64,000 nucleotides of DNA from Minisyncoccota bacterium (GTDB taxonomy: Bacteria; Patescibacteriota; Minisyncoccia; UBA6257), in assembly GCA_028694995.1 (NCBI GenBank), contig JAQVJU010000001.1, positions 15,314-79,313 of the forward strand. The letters are read 5' to 3'. The notes under the pieces are model-generated. The model was not told the DNA's origin. It saw nothing but the letters and a program-made list of their open reading frames with translations, and did not search any database. The position numbers were made by a program, and so were the translations under genes. Shown piece after piece: positions 25,804-34,144 of this stretch (position 1 is the first letter of the stretch; each line of letters opens with the position of its first letter).

Positions 25804-27939
25804 TTAATTGGGTCTTTTCTTTTTATTCTTATCTTCTTCTGAATAACGAATGTCTTTTAAAGAAAGAGATATTTTTCCATTAGGCTCAACCTTCTTTATT
25901 TTCAGATCTAGCTCTTCATCTTGATGAACTATATCCTCTACTTTATTAACATGCCAGGGCGCTAATTCAGAAATATGAAGCAATCCTTCTTTAGTGCCTC
26001 CTAAATCTATAATCGCCCCAAAGTCTTTAATTTGAATGACTTTGCCTTTTACTACTTCTCCAGCAGTAAATTCTTTAGTAACCTCTTTAATATCTTTAAT
26101 AGCTGCCTCAGCTTTTTGTTCATCAGGAGCTGTGACAAAAACTGTTCCATCATCTTCAATATCAATGGAAACATCATTGTCTTCAATTATTTTATTAATT
26201 ACCTTACCACCAGGCCCAATAAGACAACCAATTAATTCTTTTTTAATTTTTAAAGTAAATATTCTTGGGGCAAAAGGAGAAAGATTTTTTCTTGGCTCAG
26301 AAATCACTTGGTTCATTTTTTCCAAGATAAATTCCCTTGCTTTTTTAGCTTTATCTAAAATATCTGCAATAATATCCTCGGTTAATCCTTTTATCTTAAC
26401 ATCCATTTGTAAAGCAGTAATTCCATTTTTAGTACCAGCGGCTTTAAAATCCATATCCCCATAATGGTCTTCAGGACCTTGAATATCAGTCAAGATTTTA
26501 TACTTTCCTTTTTCATCTATCATCAATCCCATGGCAATACCAGAAACATGTTCTTTAATTGGAACACCACTAGCCATTAAAGCCAGAGAAGAAGCACAAG
26601 TGGCAGCCATTGAGGTTGAGCCATTAGAAGATAAAATCTCAGAAACTACCCTTACTGTATAAGGAAATTCTTCTTGTATAGGAATTATAGGAAAAAGAGC
26701 TCTTTCTCCTAAAGCGCCATGACCAATTTCTCTTCGCCCAGGGCCGCGCAAAGGACCAATCTCTCCAACTGAATATGAAGGAAAATTATAATGATGCAAA
26801 AATCTTTTTTCACCAGTTACTTCCATCCCTTGCATAAGCAAAACATCACCTGGAGAACCCAAGGTCACCACTGATAAGACATGAGTTTCACCTCTCATAA
26901 ATAAGGCTGAACCATGAGGTCGAGGTAAAATATCAATTGCCATTTCCAAAGGCCTAATTTCATCTAATTTTCTTAAATCAGGTCTTTTTTTATTTTCTAA
27001 AATATTCTGATGAATAATCTTATTTATCTGTTCATCAAAAATTGAATTTAAATCATTTAAAGATTCTAATGAAAAATCTTTAGCTTCTAAATGTTCAATT
27101 AATTCTGTTTTTAATAAATCAAGCTGAGTATTTCTTTCAGTTTTATCTTTAAGATAAAGAACAGTTTCTAATTTATTTTTTGCAAAACTTTCAATTTCTT
27201 TTTCTAATTCTAAATCCCATTCTTTTATCATTACCTCTTTCTTGGTCACTCCTACTTCATTTATAATCTTTTCTAATTGTTTATTTAAATTTGTGATTTC
27301 TTCCTGGGCTATCTTCATTGCCTGTTTGACAATATCTTCAGGCACTTCATCTGCCTCTGCTTCTAACATATTAATCAAATTATCTGGTCCAGATACAGTA
27401 ATATTAAAATCAGATTTTTCTCTTTCTTCATATTCGGCATTTATTATAAAGCCATTTTCTTTTGACCAACTTATTCTAGTAGCAGCTACTGGTCCTTGCC
27501 AGGGAATATTAGAAACACCCAGGGCCAAGGAAGCAGCAATGATACCCAAAATATCAGGATCATTTTTTTCATCAATAGAAAGACAAGTTACCACTACCTG
27601 TACCTCTCTTCTCATTTGTTGAGAAAAAAGGGGTCTAATAGTTCTATCTATTAAACGGCCATTTAAGATAGCTATTTCAGAAGGTCGTGATTCTCTTCTA
27701 ACAAAACGACTACCATAAATTTTACCCACTGCATAATATTTTTCTTCATAATCAACCATTAAAGGGAAAAAACCTAAATCTGCCTTATCTTCAGTTCCCA
27801 TTACTGCTGAAGCTAAAACAATAGTTTCACCCATTTTTACCATAACCGAACCATTGGCCTGTTCAACCAAATTAGAAAATTCAATATTTATTGTTTTATC
27901 TCCTGCTTTTACAGAAAACTGTTTTTTAATTATTGCCAT
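25804..27939 (-). CDS. pnp: polynucleotide phosphorylase
   Basis: Two RNase PH domains plus KH (LIGPGGKVINKI) and S1 (GEVVKGKVIQIKDFGAII) domains. Confidence 0.9.
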   Translation of the reverse strand: MAIIKKQFSVKAGDKTINIEFSNLVEQANGSVMVKMGETIVLASAVMGTEDKADLGFFPLMVDYEEKYYAVGKIYGSRFVRRESRPSEIAILNGRLIDRTIRPLFSQQMRREVQVVVTCLSIDEKNDPDILGIIAASLALGVSNIPWQGPVAATRISWSKENGFIINAEYEEREKSDFNITVSGPDNLINMLEAEADEVPEDIVKQAMKIAQEEITNLNKQLEKIINEVGVTKKEVMIKEWDLELEKEIESFAKNKLETVLYLKDKTERNTQLDLLKTELIEHLEAKDFSLESLNDLNSIFDEQINKIIHQNILENKKRPDLRKLDEIRPLEMAIDILPRPHGSALFMRGETHVLSVVTLGSPGDVLLMQGMEVTGEKRFLHHYNFPSYSVGEIGPLRGPGRREIGHGALGERALFPIIPIQEEFPYTVRVVSEILSSNGSTSMAATCASSLALMASGVPIKEHVSGIAMGLMIDEKGKYKILTDIQGPEDHYGDMDFKAAGTKNGITALQMDVKIKGLTEDIIADILDKAKKAREFILEKMNQVISEPRKNLSPFAPRIFTLKIKKELIGCLIGPGGKVINKIIEDNDVSIDIEDDGTVFVTAPDEQKAEAAIKDIKEVTKEFTAGEVVKGKVIQIKDFGAIIDLGGTKEGLLHISELAPWHVNKVEDIVHQDEELDLKIKKVEPNGKISLSLKDIRYSEEDKNKKKRPN

Positions 27940-27962
27940 ATATCTTGAAAATCTTTATTCAA

Positions 27963-28529
27963 TTATTTACTTTTTAATGTTGTTTTAATAATTTTTGGTA
28001 TTTTCTTATAAAAACCTTCTTTTTTAGAAGGGGCTAAAAGAAAATAATCTGATTTTGAATCTAAATCTAAATATTCATCAACAATTTCTTTTAAATGAAA
28101 TGAGGTTGTCTTACCAAAAGCCATAACCTCAACATACTTACCTAAGGCTCGTAAATATTCTACTAGAGGAATAAAATCACCATCACCAGTTATTAAAACA
28201 AAAGCATCCACATTAGAAGCCAATCTGACAGCATCAATGGCAAGGCCCACATCCCAATCTCCTTTTTTTGTCCCATCAGGATAAACCTGAAGATCTTTGA
28301 CTCTTACTTCTATACCTGATTTTTCTAAAGCATCAAAAAAAGAAGCCTCACCTGGCTCATCTGCTTTTGCCACATAGGCAATTGCTCTGATTAATTGACG
28401 ACCAGCTACAGCTTCTAAAAGAAGATTTTTAAAATTTACTCGCGCCCCATAAAGATTTTTTGCAGAATGATAAAGATTTTGCACATCAATCAAAACCACT
28501 ACTCGTTGATTTTTATTCCTAATTGTCAT
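27963..28529 (-). CDS. NYN/LabA-like domain protein (predicted RNase fold), located between rpsO and pnp
   Basis: VVVLIDVQNLY...GDWDVGLAIDAV...VLITGDGDFIPLV matches the NYN (PF01936) acidic-residue pattern. Confidence 0.65.
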   Translation of the reverse strand: MTIRNKNQRVVVLIDVQNLYHSAKNLYGARVNFKNLLLEAVAGRQLIRAIAYVAKADEPGEASFFDALEKSGIEVRVKDLQVYPDGTKKGDWDVGLAIDAVRLASNVDAFVLITGDGDFIPLVEYLRALGKYVEVMAFGKTTSFHLKEIVDEYLDLDSKSDYFLLAPSKKEGFYKKIPKIIKTTLKSK

Positions 28530-28566
28530 AAAAAATATTTTTAAAATTACTACTAAGCAGCATTTA

Positions 28567-28827
28567 TTATAGCTCTAACTTTTTTACAACTTTATTATAA
28601 CGACGAACTGAGGTTTTTTTTAAATAAGAAAGAAGCCTTCTTCTTTCAGAAATCATGCTTAAAAGACCTCTCCTTGAATGATAGTCTTTAGCATGTTCTT
28701 TTAAATGCTTGCTTAATAATTGTATTTTTTTTGTTAATAAAGCTATCTGCACTTCAGGAGAACCTGTATCTTTTTTATGAGTAGCAAATTCTTTAATAAC
28801 TTTTTCTTTTTGTTTTGTGTTTAGCAT
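28567..28827 (-). CDS. rpsO: 30S ribosomal protein S15
   Basis: 86 aa; ...DTGSPEVQIALLT..I..L..HLK.H.KD.HSRRGLL...RRRLL.YL. Confidence 0.9.
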   Translation of the reverse strand: MLNTKQKEKVIKEFATHKKDTGSPEVQIALLTKKIQLLSKHLKEHAKDYHSRRGLLSMISERRRLLSYLKKTSVRRYNKVVKKLEL

Positions 28828-29377: not shown

Positions 29378-29911
29378 ATGAATAATAGTGATGAATCGTC
29401 TAAAATAGGCTTATTAGCTATTATCTTATTCTTTAGTCTAATAAGCTTCTGGCCAAGATTTTTAGTTGAAGGTTCTCCTTTTATGACTATTCAACAAAGC
29501 ATAAATGAACCAATCCAACAAGATCTTGAAACAAACAATCTTGCAAAAGAAGAAATTGATCCTTATTACATCTCTAATAATACTTTCTTCTCTCCAATTA
29601 ATACTCCGGTATTAATTCAAGTTAAAAAAGTATATGCTACAGCCTATTCTTCAACTCCAGACCAAACAGATGGTGATCCTTTTACCACTGCTTCTGGTGC
29701 TCATGTTTATGATGGGGTTTTAGCTGCTAATTTCTTATCTTTTAATACCAAGGTAAGAATTCCAGAAGTCTTTGGTGATAAGATATTCATTGTTGAAGAT
29801 AGAATGAATTCACGATTTGGAGATAATAGGATTGATATCTGGTTTCCAGATAGAACTTCAGCTCAAGAATTCGGAATCCAGGAAACTACAATTGAGATTT
29901 TAAATTATTAA
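29378..29911 (+). CDS. secreted 3D-domain protein (MltA/YoaR-like cell-wall binding domain)
   Basis: Signal/anchor helix, then YATAYSSTPDQTDGDPFTTASGAHVYDGVLAANFLSFNTKVRIPEVFGDKIFIVEDRMNSRFGDNRIDIWFPD (3D-domain Asp pattern). Confidence 0.6.
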   Translation: MNNSDESSKIGLLAIILFFSLISFWPRFLVEGSPFMTIQQSINEPIQQDLETNNLAKEEIDPYYISNNTFFSPINTPVLIQVKKVYATAYSSTPDQTDGDPFTTASGAHVYDGVLAANFLSFNTKVRIPEVFGDKIFIVEDRMNSRFGDNRIDIWFPDRTSAQEFGIQETTIEILNY

Positions 29912-29926
29912 TTAAATCAGGAAAAC

Positions 29927-29953
29927 AAAAACCCGGCTTTTGCCGGGTTTTTT
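29927..29953 (+). terminator. rho-independent terminator of the 3D-domain gene
   Basis: AAAACCCGGC-TTTT-GCCGGGTTTTTT. Confidence 0.8.
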
Positions 29954-30092
29954 AGTGCAATATCCTTGAATTAGTCCGAACGCATTTCGCCGCCTGCGAC
30001 GGTGAGAAAATCCCCCAACGAAAAATCTGAGGGGCAGCAAAGTCACACCGCTGACAATTTTAAGTTTTTCTTAGGCGACAAATTCTTAAAAA

Positions 30093-30689
30093 TTATTCTT
30101 TTGAAAGATACTTGCTTTTCAAAAAATTTGTAAAATCTGCCATCTCTCTTTGATAAAGAGCAAGTTTTTGTTTTTTTTCTTCAGGAGTCAAAATAACTGT
30201 CATTTCCGCTCCAAAACTTTGAATACGAAAACCACCAAAGATTCCCATTCTACTGAAAGTAAGCCTGGCGTCAAATGGAATTTCTCGTCCTTTGTAAAAT
30301 TCTTCCAAAAATCCCATCATCTTTCGTTGCTGTTTAAAGTTTGTAATTCTCCATTCTTGCTCCAACTGTTCTTTCTTGTTACCCTTTGCCTTACTCCATC
30401 CCTCTGGCTCAGGCGAATATATATCAACCCATGGATATAGCAAACCATGTTGTTCTTCTCCCTCCTTGGTTATATGGCCCTCACAAGAGGCGTCCGTGGT
30501 AAATTCATGAACCAAAAAAGCAGCGACAGTTTCTTTGATTTTCTCATCAACTCCCTTGTCAAGGCGATCAGCTGTATGCTCAACTTCTGCTAATTTTTGT
30601 TCCCACGCAATCTCTTTTTCAGATTTAACAAGCTCTCCCTGTCCTTGCTCAGGAGGTTCGGGATTAAAATTTGATCGTTCTAGATACAT
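30093..30689 (-). CDS. hypothetical acidic protein (198 aa), compositionally atypical (GC ~40%)
   Basis: Intact ORF with no TM and no recognisable motif; GC clearly above its surroundings. Confidence 0.45.
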   Translation of the reverse strand: MYLERSNFNPEPPEQGQGELVKSEKEIAWEQKLAEVEHTADRLDKGVDEKIKETVAAFLVHEFTTDASCEGHITKEGEEQHGLLYPWVDIYSPEPEGWSKAKGNKKEQLEQEWRITNFKQQRKMMGFLEEFYKGREIPFDARLTFSRMGIFGGFRIQSFGAEMTVILTPEEKKQKLALYQREMADFTNFLKSKYLSKE

Positions 30690-30749
30690 ATGATTAAAAA
30701 ATTTTCTTCCCTAAAAATTAAATATAGTTCGAGCCAATGTTTTTCTACG

Positions 30750-30836
30750 TGGTGCCCAGGGTGGGACTCGAACCCACAAGCTTATAAAAGCCAAGCATTT
30801 TAAGTGCTTTGCGTATACCGATTCCGCCACCTGGGC
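30750..30836 (-). tRNA. tRNA-Leu (anticodon UAA), type II, CCA encoded
   Basis: Reverse complement GCCCAGG-TG-GCG..CGC-A-AAGCA-CTTAAAA-TGCTT- long variable arm -GTGGG-TTCGAGT-CCCAC-CCTGGGC-ACCA. Confidence 0.85.
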
Positions 30837-32564: not shown

Positions 32565-32574
32565 AAAATGGTCG

Positions 32575-32645
32575 TGCCCCTACCAGGATTCGAACCTGGA
32601 TTAATGGCTTAAGAGGCCACTACTCTACCGTTGAGTTATAGGGGC
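32575..32645 (-). tRNA. tRNA-Lys (anticodon CUU), no CCA encoded
   Basis: Reverse complement GCCCCTA-TA-ACTCAACGGTAGAGT-A-GTGGC-CTCTTAA-GCCAT-TAAT-CCAGG-TTCGAAT-CCTGG-TAGGGGC-A. Confidence 0.8.
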
Positions 32646-32969
32646 ATCAGTATTTTATTCTTAAAATAGTTTAAGTGCACTTTGTCGCCTACAACAATAA
32701 CAATCAGATTCTAAGAACTTAAGTAACTACTCCGTAAACTTAAATAATTTTAAGTTTTTCTGTAAACTAATCGTAACTCATTACAATAAATTTTTCAAGA
32801 AAAATGAGATTAACAAATTTACTGCCTTGTAATAAATGCCTTAGCTCTTTTGTCACAAGAAAAGCCCTCTTTGGAATTTTCGTTATTAATGAATCCCTTA
32901 GAGGGCATGAGTACAAACAAGAGTACAAAATAGAAAAGTATTATCATAGGCAGGAAAGCCCCTCCTCTC

Positions 32970-33665
32970 TCATCTGTATAGGATATCGGTACCGATCACG
33001 ACAAGGTTCTTCTTAGAATGACCAAGCTTGATGGGTTCATGTCTCCTAACGACAACTTTGTGCATGTCATCAGTAAGTGTAAGCAATACTAATTCTCTGT
33101 TCCAGCACCGACTGGTTTTCGGTTTTTGAGGAAAACTCTCTTCTGTCTCGTTTTGCCATCCCCAAATGCTCCCGTCTTTTTCAATCCCGTACCCAGCCTG
33201 ATAGTCACCGTCAGAGTTCTCTTCTATCCAAATCCACCAGCTCCAGAGGCTTTCATCTTTTTCAATACTGAACTCAAGACTATATTTACCAATATAATAC
33301 GATGTCTTCGAGAACAAAGCCTCGGGCTTCTGTCCGTTGGCCGGATAGAAATTAATATAATAGAACTTTTTATCTCCATCCTTTTTCTCCATCACAACAA
33401 CTTTTGCGGGCTGCCAGACGGCTTTAATTAAAGTATTTTTGGCTTTGTAGATATCTTCCCAGGAATCCTCTGGATTAATTGCTTTTGCCGCTTGGAGCGT
33501 AGTAAGCCGATAATCTGAGATGAAGAAATTATGCCCAACTCTAACTCCACCACCTGTGGACTGAATTACAAACCGCACAAAGTCCTTGTCATCAACTAAA
33601 AAGTTGTTAACGTTAATCTCTATTCGTACATTCGCCACTACCTGAATCAACATCTGATTTTCCAT
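32970..33665 (-). CDS. hypothetical Trp-rich acidic protein (231 aa), compositionally atypical (GC ~45%), strong SD AAGGAGG
   Basis: Intact ORF preceded by AAAGGAGGGGTATCATG on the minus strand; internal degenerate repeat EKDESLWSWWIWIEENSDGDY / EKDGSIWGWQNETEES; no known family. Confidence 0.45.
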   Translation of the reverse strand: MENQMLIQVVANVRIEINVNNFLVDDKDFVRFVIQSTGGGVRVGHNFFISDYRLTTLQAAKAINPEDSWEDIYKAKNTLIKAVWQPAKVVVMEKKDGDKKFYYINFYPANGQKPEALFSKTSYYIGKYSLEFSIEKDESLWSWWIWIEENSDGDYQAGYGIEKDGSIWGWQNETEESFPQKPKTSRCWNRELVLLTLTDDMHKVVVRRHEPIKLGHSKKNLVVIGTDILYR

Positions 33666-34067
33666 GATACCCCTCCTTTTTTACCCATAGGATTGAATTT
33701 GTCTTTACAGACATCCATGGGCAGGAATCGTCGCGACCATGCAATAATTACCACTCACCGTGAGTAGTATACTGAATACCAAAAATTTGATATCCAAAAC
33801 ACTACTCACTTAAGTGGTAAAGAAGAAGTGACTTTCCTTTTTCATTTTTTTAATGTGCTAATTGTATTTGAAATAAGATTCTTGAAACTTTCCTTAAAAA
33901 CCTATCTCTCTTATTTTAACGCTACTTTCTAACGTTATTAGTATTGAAGATATTGTAAGATTTGTCATGATGTTGAGAAATATCTGTTAAAAAGTAACTT
34001 TTTGATAAAAACAGAAATTATTGTTGTTAATTTTTAATTAGGTAAAGCAAAAACTGAAATTTAATAC

Positions 34068-34144
34068 TGGTGCCCTCGGCAGGAGTCGAACCTGCAATCT
34101 TCTGTTCCGAAGACAGAAATGTTATCCAGTTACACCACGAGGGC
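34068..34144 (-). tRNA. tRNA-Arg (anticodon UCG), CCA encoded
   Basis: Reverse complement GCCCTCG-TG-GTGTAACTGGATAACAT-T-TCTGT-CTTCGGA-ACAGA-AGATT-GCAGG-TTCGACT-CCTGC-CGAGGGC-ACCA. Confidence 0.85.

Follow-up and report, generated by a model that had tools for sequence, protein, structure and literature searches.

A 0.8-kb insertion at the 3′ end of a Patescibacteria tRNA-Leu gene as a probable cargo module of a serine-recombinase-associated element family

The locus considered here lies in a 64-kb stretch of low-GC Patescibacteria sequence (henceforth, the window), on whose minus strand infB is followed in order by tRNA-Cys, tRNA-Leu(UAA), a 60-nt spacer, an ORF of 198 aa, a non-coding tail of about 140 nt and a terminator. 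The tRNA-Leu gene (30750-30836, minus strand; ARAGORN and Rfam calls) stands directly upstream of the ORF (30093-30689, minus strand) and on the same strand, while the bidirectional hairpin terminator (29927-29952) is common to the convergent gene for a 3D-domain protein at 29378-29911. The first-pass annotation of this DNA had described an intact minus-strand ORF of this length, a flanking terminator, a position at the 3′ end of tRNA-Leu(UAA) and a specific minus-strand tail sequence, and all four are present in the window. NCBI labels the ORF product a hypothetical protein from a Candidatus Pacebacteria MAG. Elsewhere in the window, a full-length group I catalytic intron is found at 1328-1565 on the plus strand (Rfam RF00028, 99.6 bits); introns of this class have been described within Patescibacteria tRNA genes (PMC13011429).

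The interval had been singled out for its composition, with its flanks put at 25-30% GC, the segment 29955-30700 at 40-55% and the tail at about 55%. When measured, the contrast is real but modest: the window mean is 31.8% and the interval 29955-30749 has 38.5%, placing it at the 97.6th percentile of equal-sized windows, which elsewhere reach a maximum of 42%. Neither the flank nor the segment estimate was borne out, and the figure for the tail is approached only in a core of 83-96 nt at 52-54% (99.6th percentile, like tRNA genes), the whole of 29955-30092 having 44%. Among the 47 ORFs of the window, the 198-aa ORF ranks second in both GC (z = 2.5) and GC3 (30% where the average is 21%; z = 1.9), which makes it an outlier on both counts.

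Two syntenic relatives, L211 and L215, were reached via homologs of the neighbouring 3D-domain protein. Their genes, like those of the window, run in the order pnp, NYN, rpsO and tRNA-Ser, then the 3D-domain gene, the terminator, tRNA-Leu, tRNA-Cys and infB, and in both (2/2) the island is absent from the syntenic site, with clean junctions and with the T-run of the terminator only 1-2 nt from tRNA-Leu. The terminator-to-tRNA interval, for which the first-pass annotation had proposed a synteny comparison, is thus empty in each. On the minus strand, with a slash marking the junction, the empty sites read CTGGGCAC/(T)AAAAAAC and then the terminator: specifically, CTGGGCAC/AAAAAACCCGGCAAAAGCCGGG in L211 and CTGGGCAC/TAAAAAAC followed by the terminator in L215. 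Further, L211 carries AAAAACCCGGCTTTTGCCGGGTTTTTT, the same sequence as the window terminator, directly beside tRNA-Leu; the terminator is the flank that adjoins tRNA-Leu in the empty sites, and in the window it lies outside the insert. The same strand of the window reads CTGGGCAC/CACGTAGAAAAACA at the tRNA end of the island and ATATTGCAC/TAAAAAACCCGG (also written ATATTGCAC/TAAAAAACCCGGCAAAAGCCGGG) at the other. From the comparison of these junctions it follows that a 4-bp core, GCAC (GTGC on the plus strand), has been duplicated, one copy lying at 29955-29958 and the other, which is that of the host tRNA-Leu, at 30752-30755. It had been stated that no direct repeat is visible, which this pair contradicts; moreover, at its right end the island mimics, in degenerate form, the 3′ terminus of a tRNA. 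The two copies bracket 797 bp (29955-30751, minus strand, counting one copy of the core), an interval nearly identical to the one delimited in the first-pass annotation. The CA at 30750-30751, contributed by the insert, completes the encoded CCA of tRNA-Leu.

Hence, the 797 extra bp constitute a presence/absence polymorphism positioned exactly at the tRNA 3′ end, as seen against relatives that are not very close, their 3D-domain proteins being 66-77% identical to that of the window; instead of a gain, a precise loss in both L211 and L215 could conceivably account for it. The genomic 3′ end of tRNA-Leu itself differs among these sequences: it reads GGGCAC-CA in the window (30750-30752) versus GGGCAC-TA or GGGCAC-AA in the relatives (L211 5579-5582 and L215 5566-5570), where the CCA is not encoded. 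Two further features of the neighborhood may be recorded. The cluster of rpsO, a gene for an NYN-domain protein and pnp is conserved in several Patescibacteria (window 25804-28827, L008, L211 and L215), with the NYN-domain protein, a predicted RNase, always lying between S15 and PNPase. In L211, a gene running off the locus (1-56) encodes an FtsH-like AAA/M41 protease of 1029 aa with an intein that contains a LAGLIDADG domain.

The insert can be divided into modules, all on the minus strand, of which the leader and tail are conserved at the nucleotide level between the loci of close homologs of the ORF. The leader LD1, CGTAGAAAAACATTGGCTCGAACTATATTTAATTTTTAGGGAAGAAAATTTTTTAATCAT (30690-30749), ends at the ATG and has 91% identity with the leader consensus; its 5′ part corresponds to the codons for FLKNIGSNHIL of the recombinase introduced below. 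In other loci, LD1-type leaders stand upstream of unrelated cargo ORFs. The tail opens with the block B5, AAGAATTTGTCGCCTAAGAAAAACTTAAAATTGTC (35 nt, 30053-30087), which agrees with the consensus at 32 of 35 positions and coincides in sequence with codons ~29-41 of the recombinase gene (KEFAAKEKLEIV). It continues in a GC-rich body with local hairpins (29992-30052), including a terminator-like one at 30012-30033, and closes with the block B3, GGCGAAATGCGTTCGGACTAATTCAAGGATATTGCAC (29955-29991), which has 95% identity with the B3a consensus and forms an attR-like junction. B3 holds a T-loop-like sequence, GTTCGGAC, and terminates in the window as GCAC/TA and generally as GCAC(C/T)A, just as a tRNA 3′ end does. 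In other loci, where it finishes with CTGCACCA, a leader comes next, so that B3 stands exactly where a real tRNA end would. Leaders indeed begin right after either real tRNA ends (Leu, Ile, Phe and Met) or B3 ends, yielding GCACCA/CGTAGG; therefore, B3 takes the position of a tRNA end. LD1, B5 and B3 each occur once in the 64 kb. Copies of the tail differ from each other by the gain or loss of entire GC-rich hairpins, and pairing within them is not conserved.

Several other interpretations of the tail were tried and set aside: an SRP-RNA or tRNA-like element found no covariance-model support, a hand-built 7-bp "acceptor stem" (GGUGCGG:CUGCACC) breaks in several copies, a consensus RNA structure proved weak and devoid of covariation, and a MITE with an AAGAAT target duplication was abandoned given the link to a recombinase and the GCAC junctions. 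The window also holds a second insertion 3′ of a tRNA (32646-34067, minus strand), between tRNA-Arg(tcg) (34068-34144) and tRNA-Lys (32574-32645), two genes that are only 3 nt apart in L215. Its 231-aa ORF (32970-33665) has the top GC3 of the window (45.5% against the 21% mean), and near its end are a degenerate B5-like sequence (32761-32740) and a B3-like one (~32695-32650). This insertion probably represents an earlier cassette of the system that has since decayed.

A metagenome scan with the first 21 nt of the tail, i.e., the start of B5, recovered at least 120 contigs. Among the matches listed, about one third of the B5 sites lie inside the gene for a large serine recombinase (LSR), the remainder belonging to tails behind unrelated ORFs, and in none does the 198-aa gene stand upstream of B5. 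The LSR, as found in the related loci, shows the Pfam domains Resolvase (2e-19), Recombinase (6e-16) and Zn_ribbon_recom (1.9e-07), and matches the integrase family phrog_95 at 1.8e-75. It is present in L205, L195, L139 and other relatives, and the closest homolog of the window ORF (P0002, 77% identity), located elsewhere than at the window locus, is encoded divergently beside it with the same LD1, B5 and B3. Eight independent contigs share one layout: tRNA, a second leader type LD2, the LSR gene in antisense with B5 inside it, an inverted LD2, an inverted B3 plus body, LD1, the cargo, B5, body, B3 and the host flank. This arrangement is repeated with six unrelated cargos (L115, L139, L169, L178, L198, L195 and L138). 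Across the eight contigs the cargos, unrelated to one another, comprise membrane proteins, hypothetical proteins and the TYW3-like protein. Parts of both leaders derive from LSR coding sequence. The autonomous, LSR-carrying form spans ~2.6-2.8 kb and the solo cassette 0.8 kb. The first-pass annotation had noted the lack of an integrase, and indeed neither the island nor the rest of the 64-kb window contains a recombinase gene homologous to the associated LSR or a second copy of the modules; therefore, the window copy is a non-autonomous remnant that is probably stranded. In viral contigs of IMG/VR, B5 had just 5 matches, all attributable to chance, giving no sign of a phage origin.

The LSR-bearing locus L205 offers some additional observations. 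The 3′ end of its LSR ORF runs antisense across an LD2 copy into a tRNA-Arg gene (1527-1690); its final ~60 codons thereby read as the reverse complement of the leader that precedes this same LSR gene. After the cassette, a segment of ~175 bp with a T-loop-like sequence is flanked on each side by direct repeats of ~35 bp (L205 4150-4360; L207 1430-1645). The next genes downstream encode 195 aa in L205 versus 162 and 128 aa in L207, in contexts that are otherwise identical, which suggests cassette turnover.

Contigs with two B5 copies carry them inverted and 1.0-1.2 kb apart. Among the matches listed, the flanks of B5 fall into 36 cases with recombinase sequence on both sides, 64 with other sequence on both sides, 9 with other sequence before and recombinase after it, and 5 scored as recombinase before and other sequence after it; three of these five (L094, L110 and L112) are true recombinase-to-tail junctions, the other two being recombinase variants. 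Inversion between the B5 in the LSR gene and the B5 behind the cargo predicts two products, both of which are found in metagenome contigs: LD1-cargo-B5-LSR(aa 29-end)-tRNA in L188 (4539-7075), and B3-LD2-LSR(aa 1-42)-B5-body-B3 in L112 (7382-7804), L110 and L094. The LSR gene is therefore split in one of the two orientations. Directly 3′ of B5 within the LSR gene there is a hairpin with a 7-bp stem that covaries while the encoded peptide varies (L205 2940-2985; L087-L203): GCCTCGC pairs with GCGAGGC (encoding ASLCEA), GCTTCCT with AGGAAGC (ASFQEA), and GCCTCTT with AAGAGGC (ASFQEA). All comparison sequences are metagenome assemblies, in which repeats can give chimeric joins; the same junction classes are seen again in many independent samples.

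As to the cargo of the window copy, the ORF product is mildly acidic (pI 5.35; 36 D+E versus 29 K+R), in agreement with its earlier description as an acidic protein. It had also been called an orphan, which is not the case: we found 101 homologs sharing 31-77% identity with it, from Pace-, Wildermuth-, Specht-, Lipton-, Yonath-, Kerfeldbacteria and others, 97 genome loci with a homolog, including some from Chlamydiae, Dependentiae and Chloroflexi, and, at E <= 1e-3, a family of 2,599 clusters at 50% identity, mainly from Patescibacteria with other phyla also represented. Identities of 60-77% are seen across different Patescibacteria classes, and the GC content of the homologous genes stays at 33-46% (mostly 36-42%), although their hosts range over 32-49%. 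A same-strand tRNA lies at most 400 nt upstream of 11 of the 19 genes of the close subfamily (58%), with six amino-acid identities represented, against 3.2% for random positions (p about 1e-13) and 11% in the wider family. In L008, a family gene is also found upstream of rpsO-NYN-pnp, which could hint at some positional conservation.

Profile searches with the ORF against Pfam, NCBIfam, PADLOC and PHROGs gave nothing usable, a sequence-profile search of PDB gave 0 hits, Foldseek against PDB nothing significant, and the domain fusions across the family are uninformative. The invariant residues include I51, K52, S68, C69, G71, H72 and P86, with E70, W87 and D48 conserved in at least 90% of members; the ORF carries the motif T65-x-x-S68-C69-E70-G71-H72. 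The enzyme TYW3 is typified by the signature (S/T)xSSCxGR together with an invariant Asp and His (PMC5311493). With hhalign, Taw3 motif segments taken from PDB align to residues 47-74 (P 1.9e-4), pairing D48 with the Taw3 Asp and matching T-x-x-S-C-x-G, with His instead of Arg. The family has T-x-x-S-C-E-G-H where TYW3 has its signature, keeping the Thr, one Ser, the Cys and the Gly; ~25 residues past the Cys it has no conserved His, P86-W87 being conserved there instead. Moreover, the Pfam TYW3 profile matches 0 of 40 members even at E <= 10. Given the motif alignment on the one hand, and the failure of Foldseek and Pfam to return a match on the other, we describe the protein as having a divergent, TYW3-like predicted fold and not as a member of TYW3, a judgment for which the evidence is mixed. 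A tentative guess at its activity would be SAM-dependent or Cys-nucleophile modification of a nucleic acid. The family could possibly be a new bacterial branch of TYW3/Taw3-related methyltransferases. Bacteria are not known to make wybutosine; therefore, the substrate of such a branch would have to differ from that of TYW3/Taw3.

Taken together, we judge it probable, at roughly 0.7, that the 797 bp inserted at the 3′ terminus of tRNA-Leu(UAA) are the cargo module of a family of small integrative elements of Patescibacteria. The suggestion that this is a horizontally acquired remnant at a tRNA hotspot finds support in its absence from L211 and L215, the duplicated GCAC and the modules held in common with the LSR elements. 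We advance the following plausible mechanism. B3, with its GTTCGGAC and terminal GCACCA, would imitate a tRNA 3′ end. The LSR, implicated as the catalyst by association, would recombine the B3-leader junction, acting as an attP-like site, with the tRNA 3′ end, acting as an attB-like site, and the crossover would fall within the shared GCAC. The boundary of the tRNA end with the host flank would then be attB; in the window, attL would be the tRNA-Leu junction GGGCAC/CACGTAG and attR would be ATATTGCAC/TAAAAAAC with the terminator. Under this scheme, reads from an empty site should run CTGGGCAC TAAAAAACCCGGC, and those from a circle or attP junction ATATTGCAC CACGTAGAAAAACATTGG. The window copy would be a stranded cassette that can be moved only by an LSR supplied in trans. 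Its transcription would probably depend on read-through from the tRNA-Cys/tRNA-Leu unit and stop at the host terminator, and the GC-rich tail would represent the recombination end of the element and not an RNA gene. Serine recombinases normally require just a 2-bp core. A simple attP/attB model does not account for the part that B5 and the GC-rich body play in the tail.

A more specific proposal, which we put forward tentatively and at somewhat less than even odds, would make the island one stranded representative of a so far undescribed class, the LSR-driven miniature cassettes, defined by three features jointly. The class would dock on the 3′ ends of many tRNA genes via B3, the element-borne mimic of a tRNA end; it would swap single-gene cargos; and its LSR gene would contain its own recombination site, namely B5 with the covarying hairpin, whereby inversion against the other B5, the one behind the cargo, would disrupt and restore that gene and so provide a built-in on/off switch. 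The element family appears to be undescribed: the searchable literature on serine recombinases, Patescibacteria/CPR, cassettes and tRNA yielded no described equivalent, which is not proof of absence.

Two competing explanations would keep the island immobile or its tail an RNA. The tail might be a structured ncRNA, either a 3′-UTR element or an sRNA, that is co-transcribed with the ORF and regulates or stabilizes it, as the first-pass annotation had suggested in proposing a gene with an attached ncRNA. Its local hairpins, the mildly favorable fold of 181 nt of the minus strand (z = -2.4 versus shuffled controls), the GC-rich core at 52-54% in a 32% GC genome and the placement of the terminator after the tail are all compatible with this. 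However, a scan against Rfam, as had been proposed, matched no family at the gathering threshold, hits by E-value lying far below the gathering scores and mostly spanning the terminator, and RNAalifold on 18 tail copies gave a weak consensus structure (-13.5 kcal/mol; covariation term -0.11) in which just 2 of 23 pairs change on both sides. The appearance and disappearance of hairpins as whole units, and the occurrence of the tail behind unrelated genes and inverted upstream of genes, with a start made of recombinase coding sequence, are also at odds with an RNA gene, which we accordingly regard as unlikely. It is quite unlikely, too, that the ORF is a vertically inherited housekeeping enzyme modifying tRNAs beside whose genes it sits. 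The TYW3/Taw3-like predicted fold and motif, the frequent adjacency to tRNA genes, the L008 gene upstream of rpsO-NYN-pnp and the size of the family speak for such an enzyme, but it would hardly be missing with clean junctions from the same site in L211 and L215. The upstream tRNAs being of six identities, the fall in adjacency from 58% in the close clade to 11% in the wider family, the identities of 60-77% across classes with a GC content independent of that of the host, and the residence of the closest homolog elsewhere by an LSR all point the same way.

Other alternatives accept a foreign origin and differ in the kind of element. The island could be an integron-type gene cassette whose tail acts like attC, folding in single-stranded form and being captured into arrays: the ORF is promoterless, the recombination module behind it varies in length but keeps its ends conserved, alternating ORFs and tails form arrays in L006 and L008, and the downstream cassettes differ between L205 and L207 within the same outer flanks. 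Yet the accompanying recombinase belongs to the serine family and not to the IntI tyrosine recombinases, the conserved stem pairing of attC (R''/L''-L'/R') was not found by RNAalifold on the 18 tails, and docking occurs on a tRNA 3′ end instead of an attI next to the integrase gene, making this reading very improbable. The earlier thought of a small toxin or anti-phage defense module draws solely on context, i.e., a small foreign island adjacent to a tRNA. It is the least probable of these readings and, in our view, extremely so: PADLOC matched 0 families at E <= 1, the gene stands alone with no partner, and neither the PHROG, Pfam and NCBIfam searches nor the domain fusions of the family were informative. 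We hence favor the LSR-associated cassette.

The nearest analogue of such a cassette is the tycheposon or tRNA-island model, tycheposons being the tRNA-targeting integrative elements of Prochlorococcus (bioRxiv 10.1101/2020.12.28.424599). In both cases cargo appears to be integrated at a tRNA 3′ end, the element is bordered on one side by the tRNA end and on the other by another att copy that resembles a tRNA, and degenerate, integrase-less elements pile up beside the tRNA. In contrast, tyrosine recombinases are used there and an LSR would be used here; the present elements are tiny (0.8 kb solo, 2.6-2.8 kb with the LSR), with no replication module seen, and have many different tRNA targets in Patescibacteria hosts; and at their right end a conserved, element-borne sequence mimics a tRNA end without copying the particular tRNA that was targeted. 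With other LSRs and serine integrases (phiC31, Bxb1 Int, CcrA/B of SCCmec, XisF and TnpX/TndX), the enzyme shares the Resolvase, Recombinase and Zn-ribbon domains, and mobilization of cassettes by site-specific recombination is known for such enzymes. Beyond the phrog_95 match, its likeness to CcrB and XisF is distant, with scores far under the curated cut-offs, which places it outside those equivalogs. It also differs in having a recombination-prone block of 35 nt with a covarying hairpin within its own coding sequence, and an inverted copy of the block behind the cargo, such that inversion splits the recombinase gene.

Integron cassettes with their attC sites, including CALIN arrays, resemble these elements in the combination of an ORF with a 3′ site, conserved ends, a variable middle, small arrays and turnover; they differ by the serine recombinase, the lack of attC-type pairing and the use of a tRNA end as the dock. 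The DNA-invertase switches (Hin, Gin and Cin) and shufflons likewise have inverted repeats of a recombinase site with both orientations found in nature. Here, however, the recombinase ORF itself contains one of the repeats, with the result that one orientation truncates the enzyme, and the enzyme is large and integrase-type; the likeness concerns the relatives only and not the window copy. On the side of the cargo, the family departs from the TYW3/Taw3 N4-methyltransferases of tRNA-yW (PMC5311493) in having His for Arg, in the loss of the second Ser of the motif, in the absence of an equivalent of the downstream invariant His, and in matching neither the Pfam profile nor, at a significant level by Foldseek, any PDB structure.

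The genomes of Patescibacteria are tiny, and gene exchange among them is little known. A practical consequence is that annotation should avoid the label ncRNA for GC-rich "tails" such as this one. The large family with the TYW3-like predicted fold joins the candidate nucleic-acid-modifying enzymes. The associated LSR, being small, apparently self-regulating and provided with short, well-defined sites, belongs to a type of enzyme that is used in genome engineering. Finally, the 0.8-kb island leads to what appears to be a compact and widespread cassette system, with representatives in at least 120 metagenome contigs, that would carry single genes across distant lineages and leave them behind tRNA genes.
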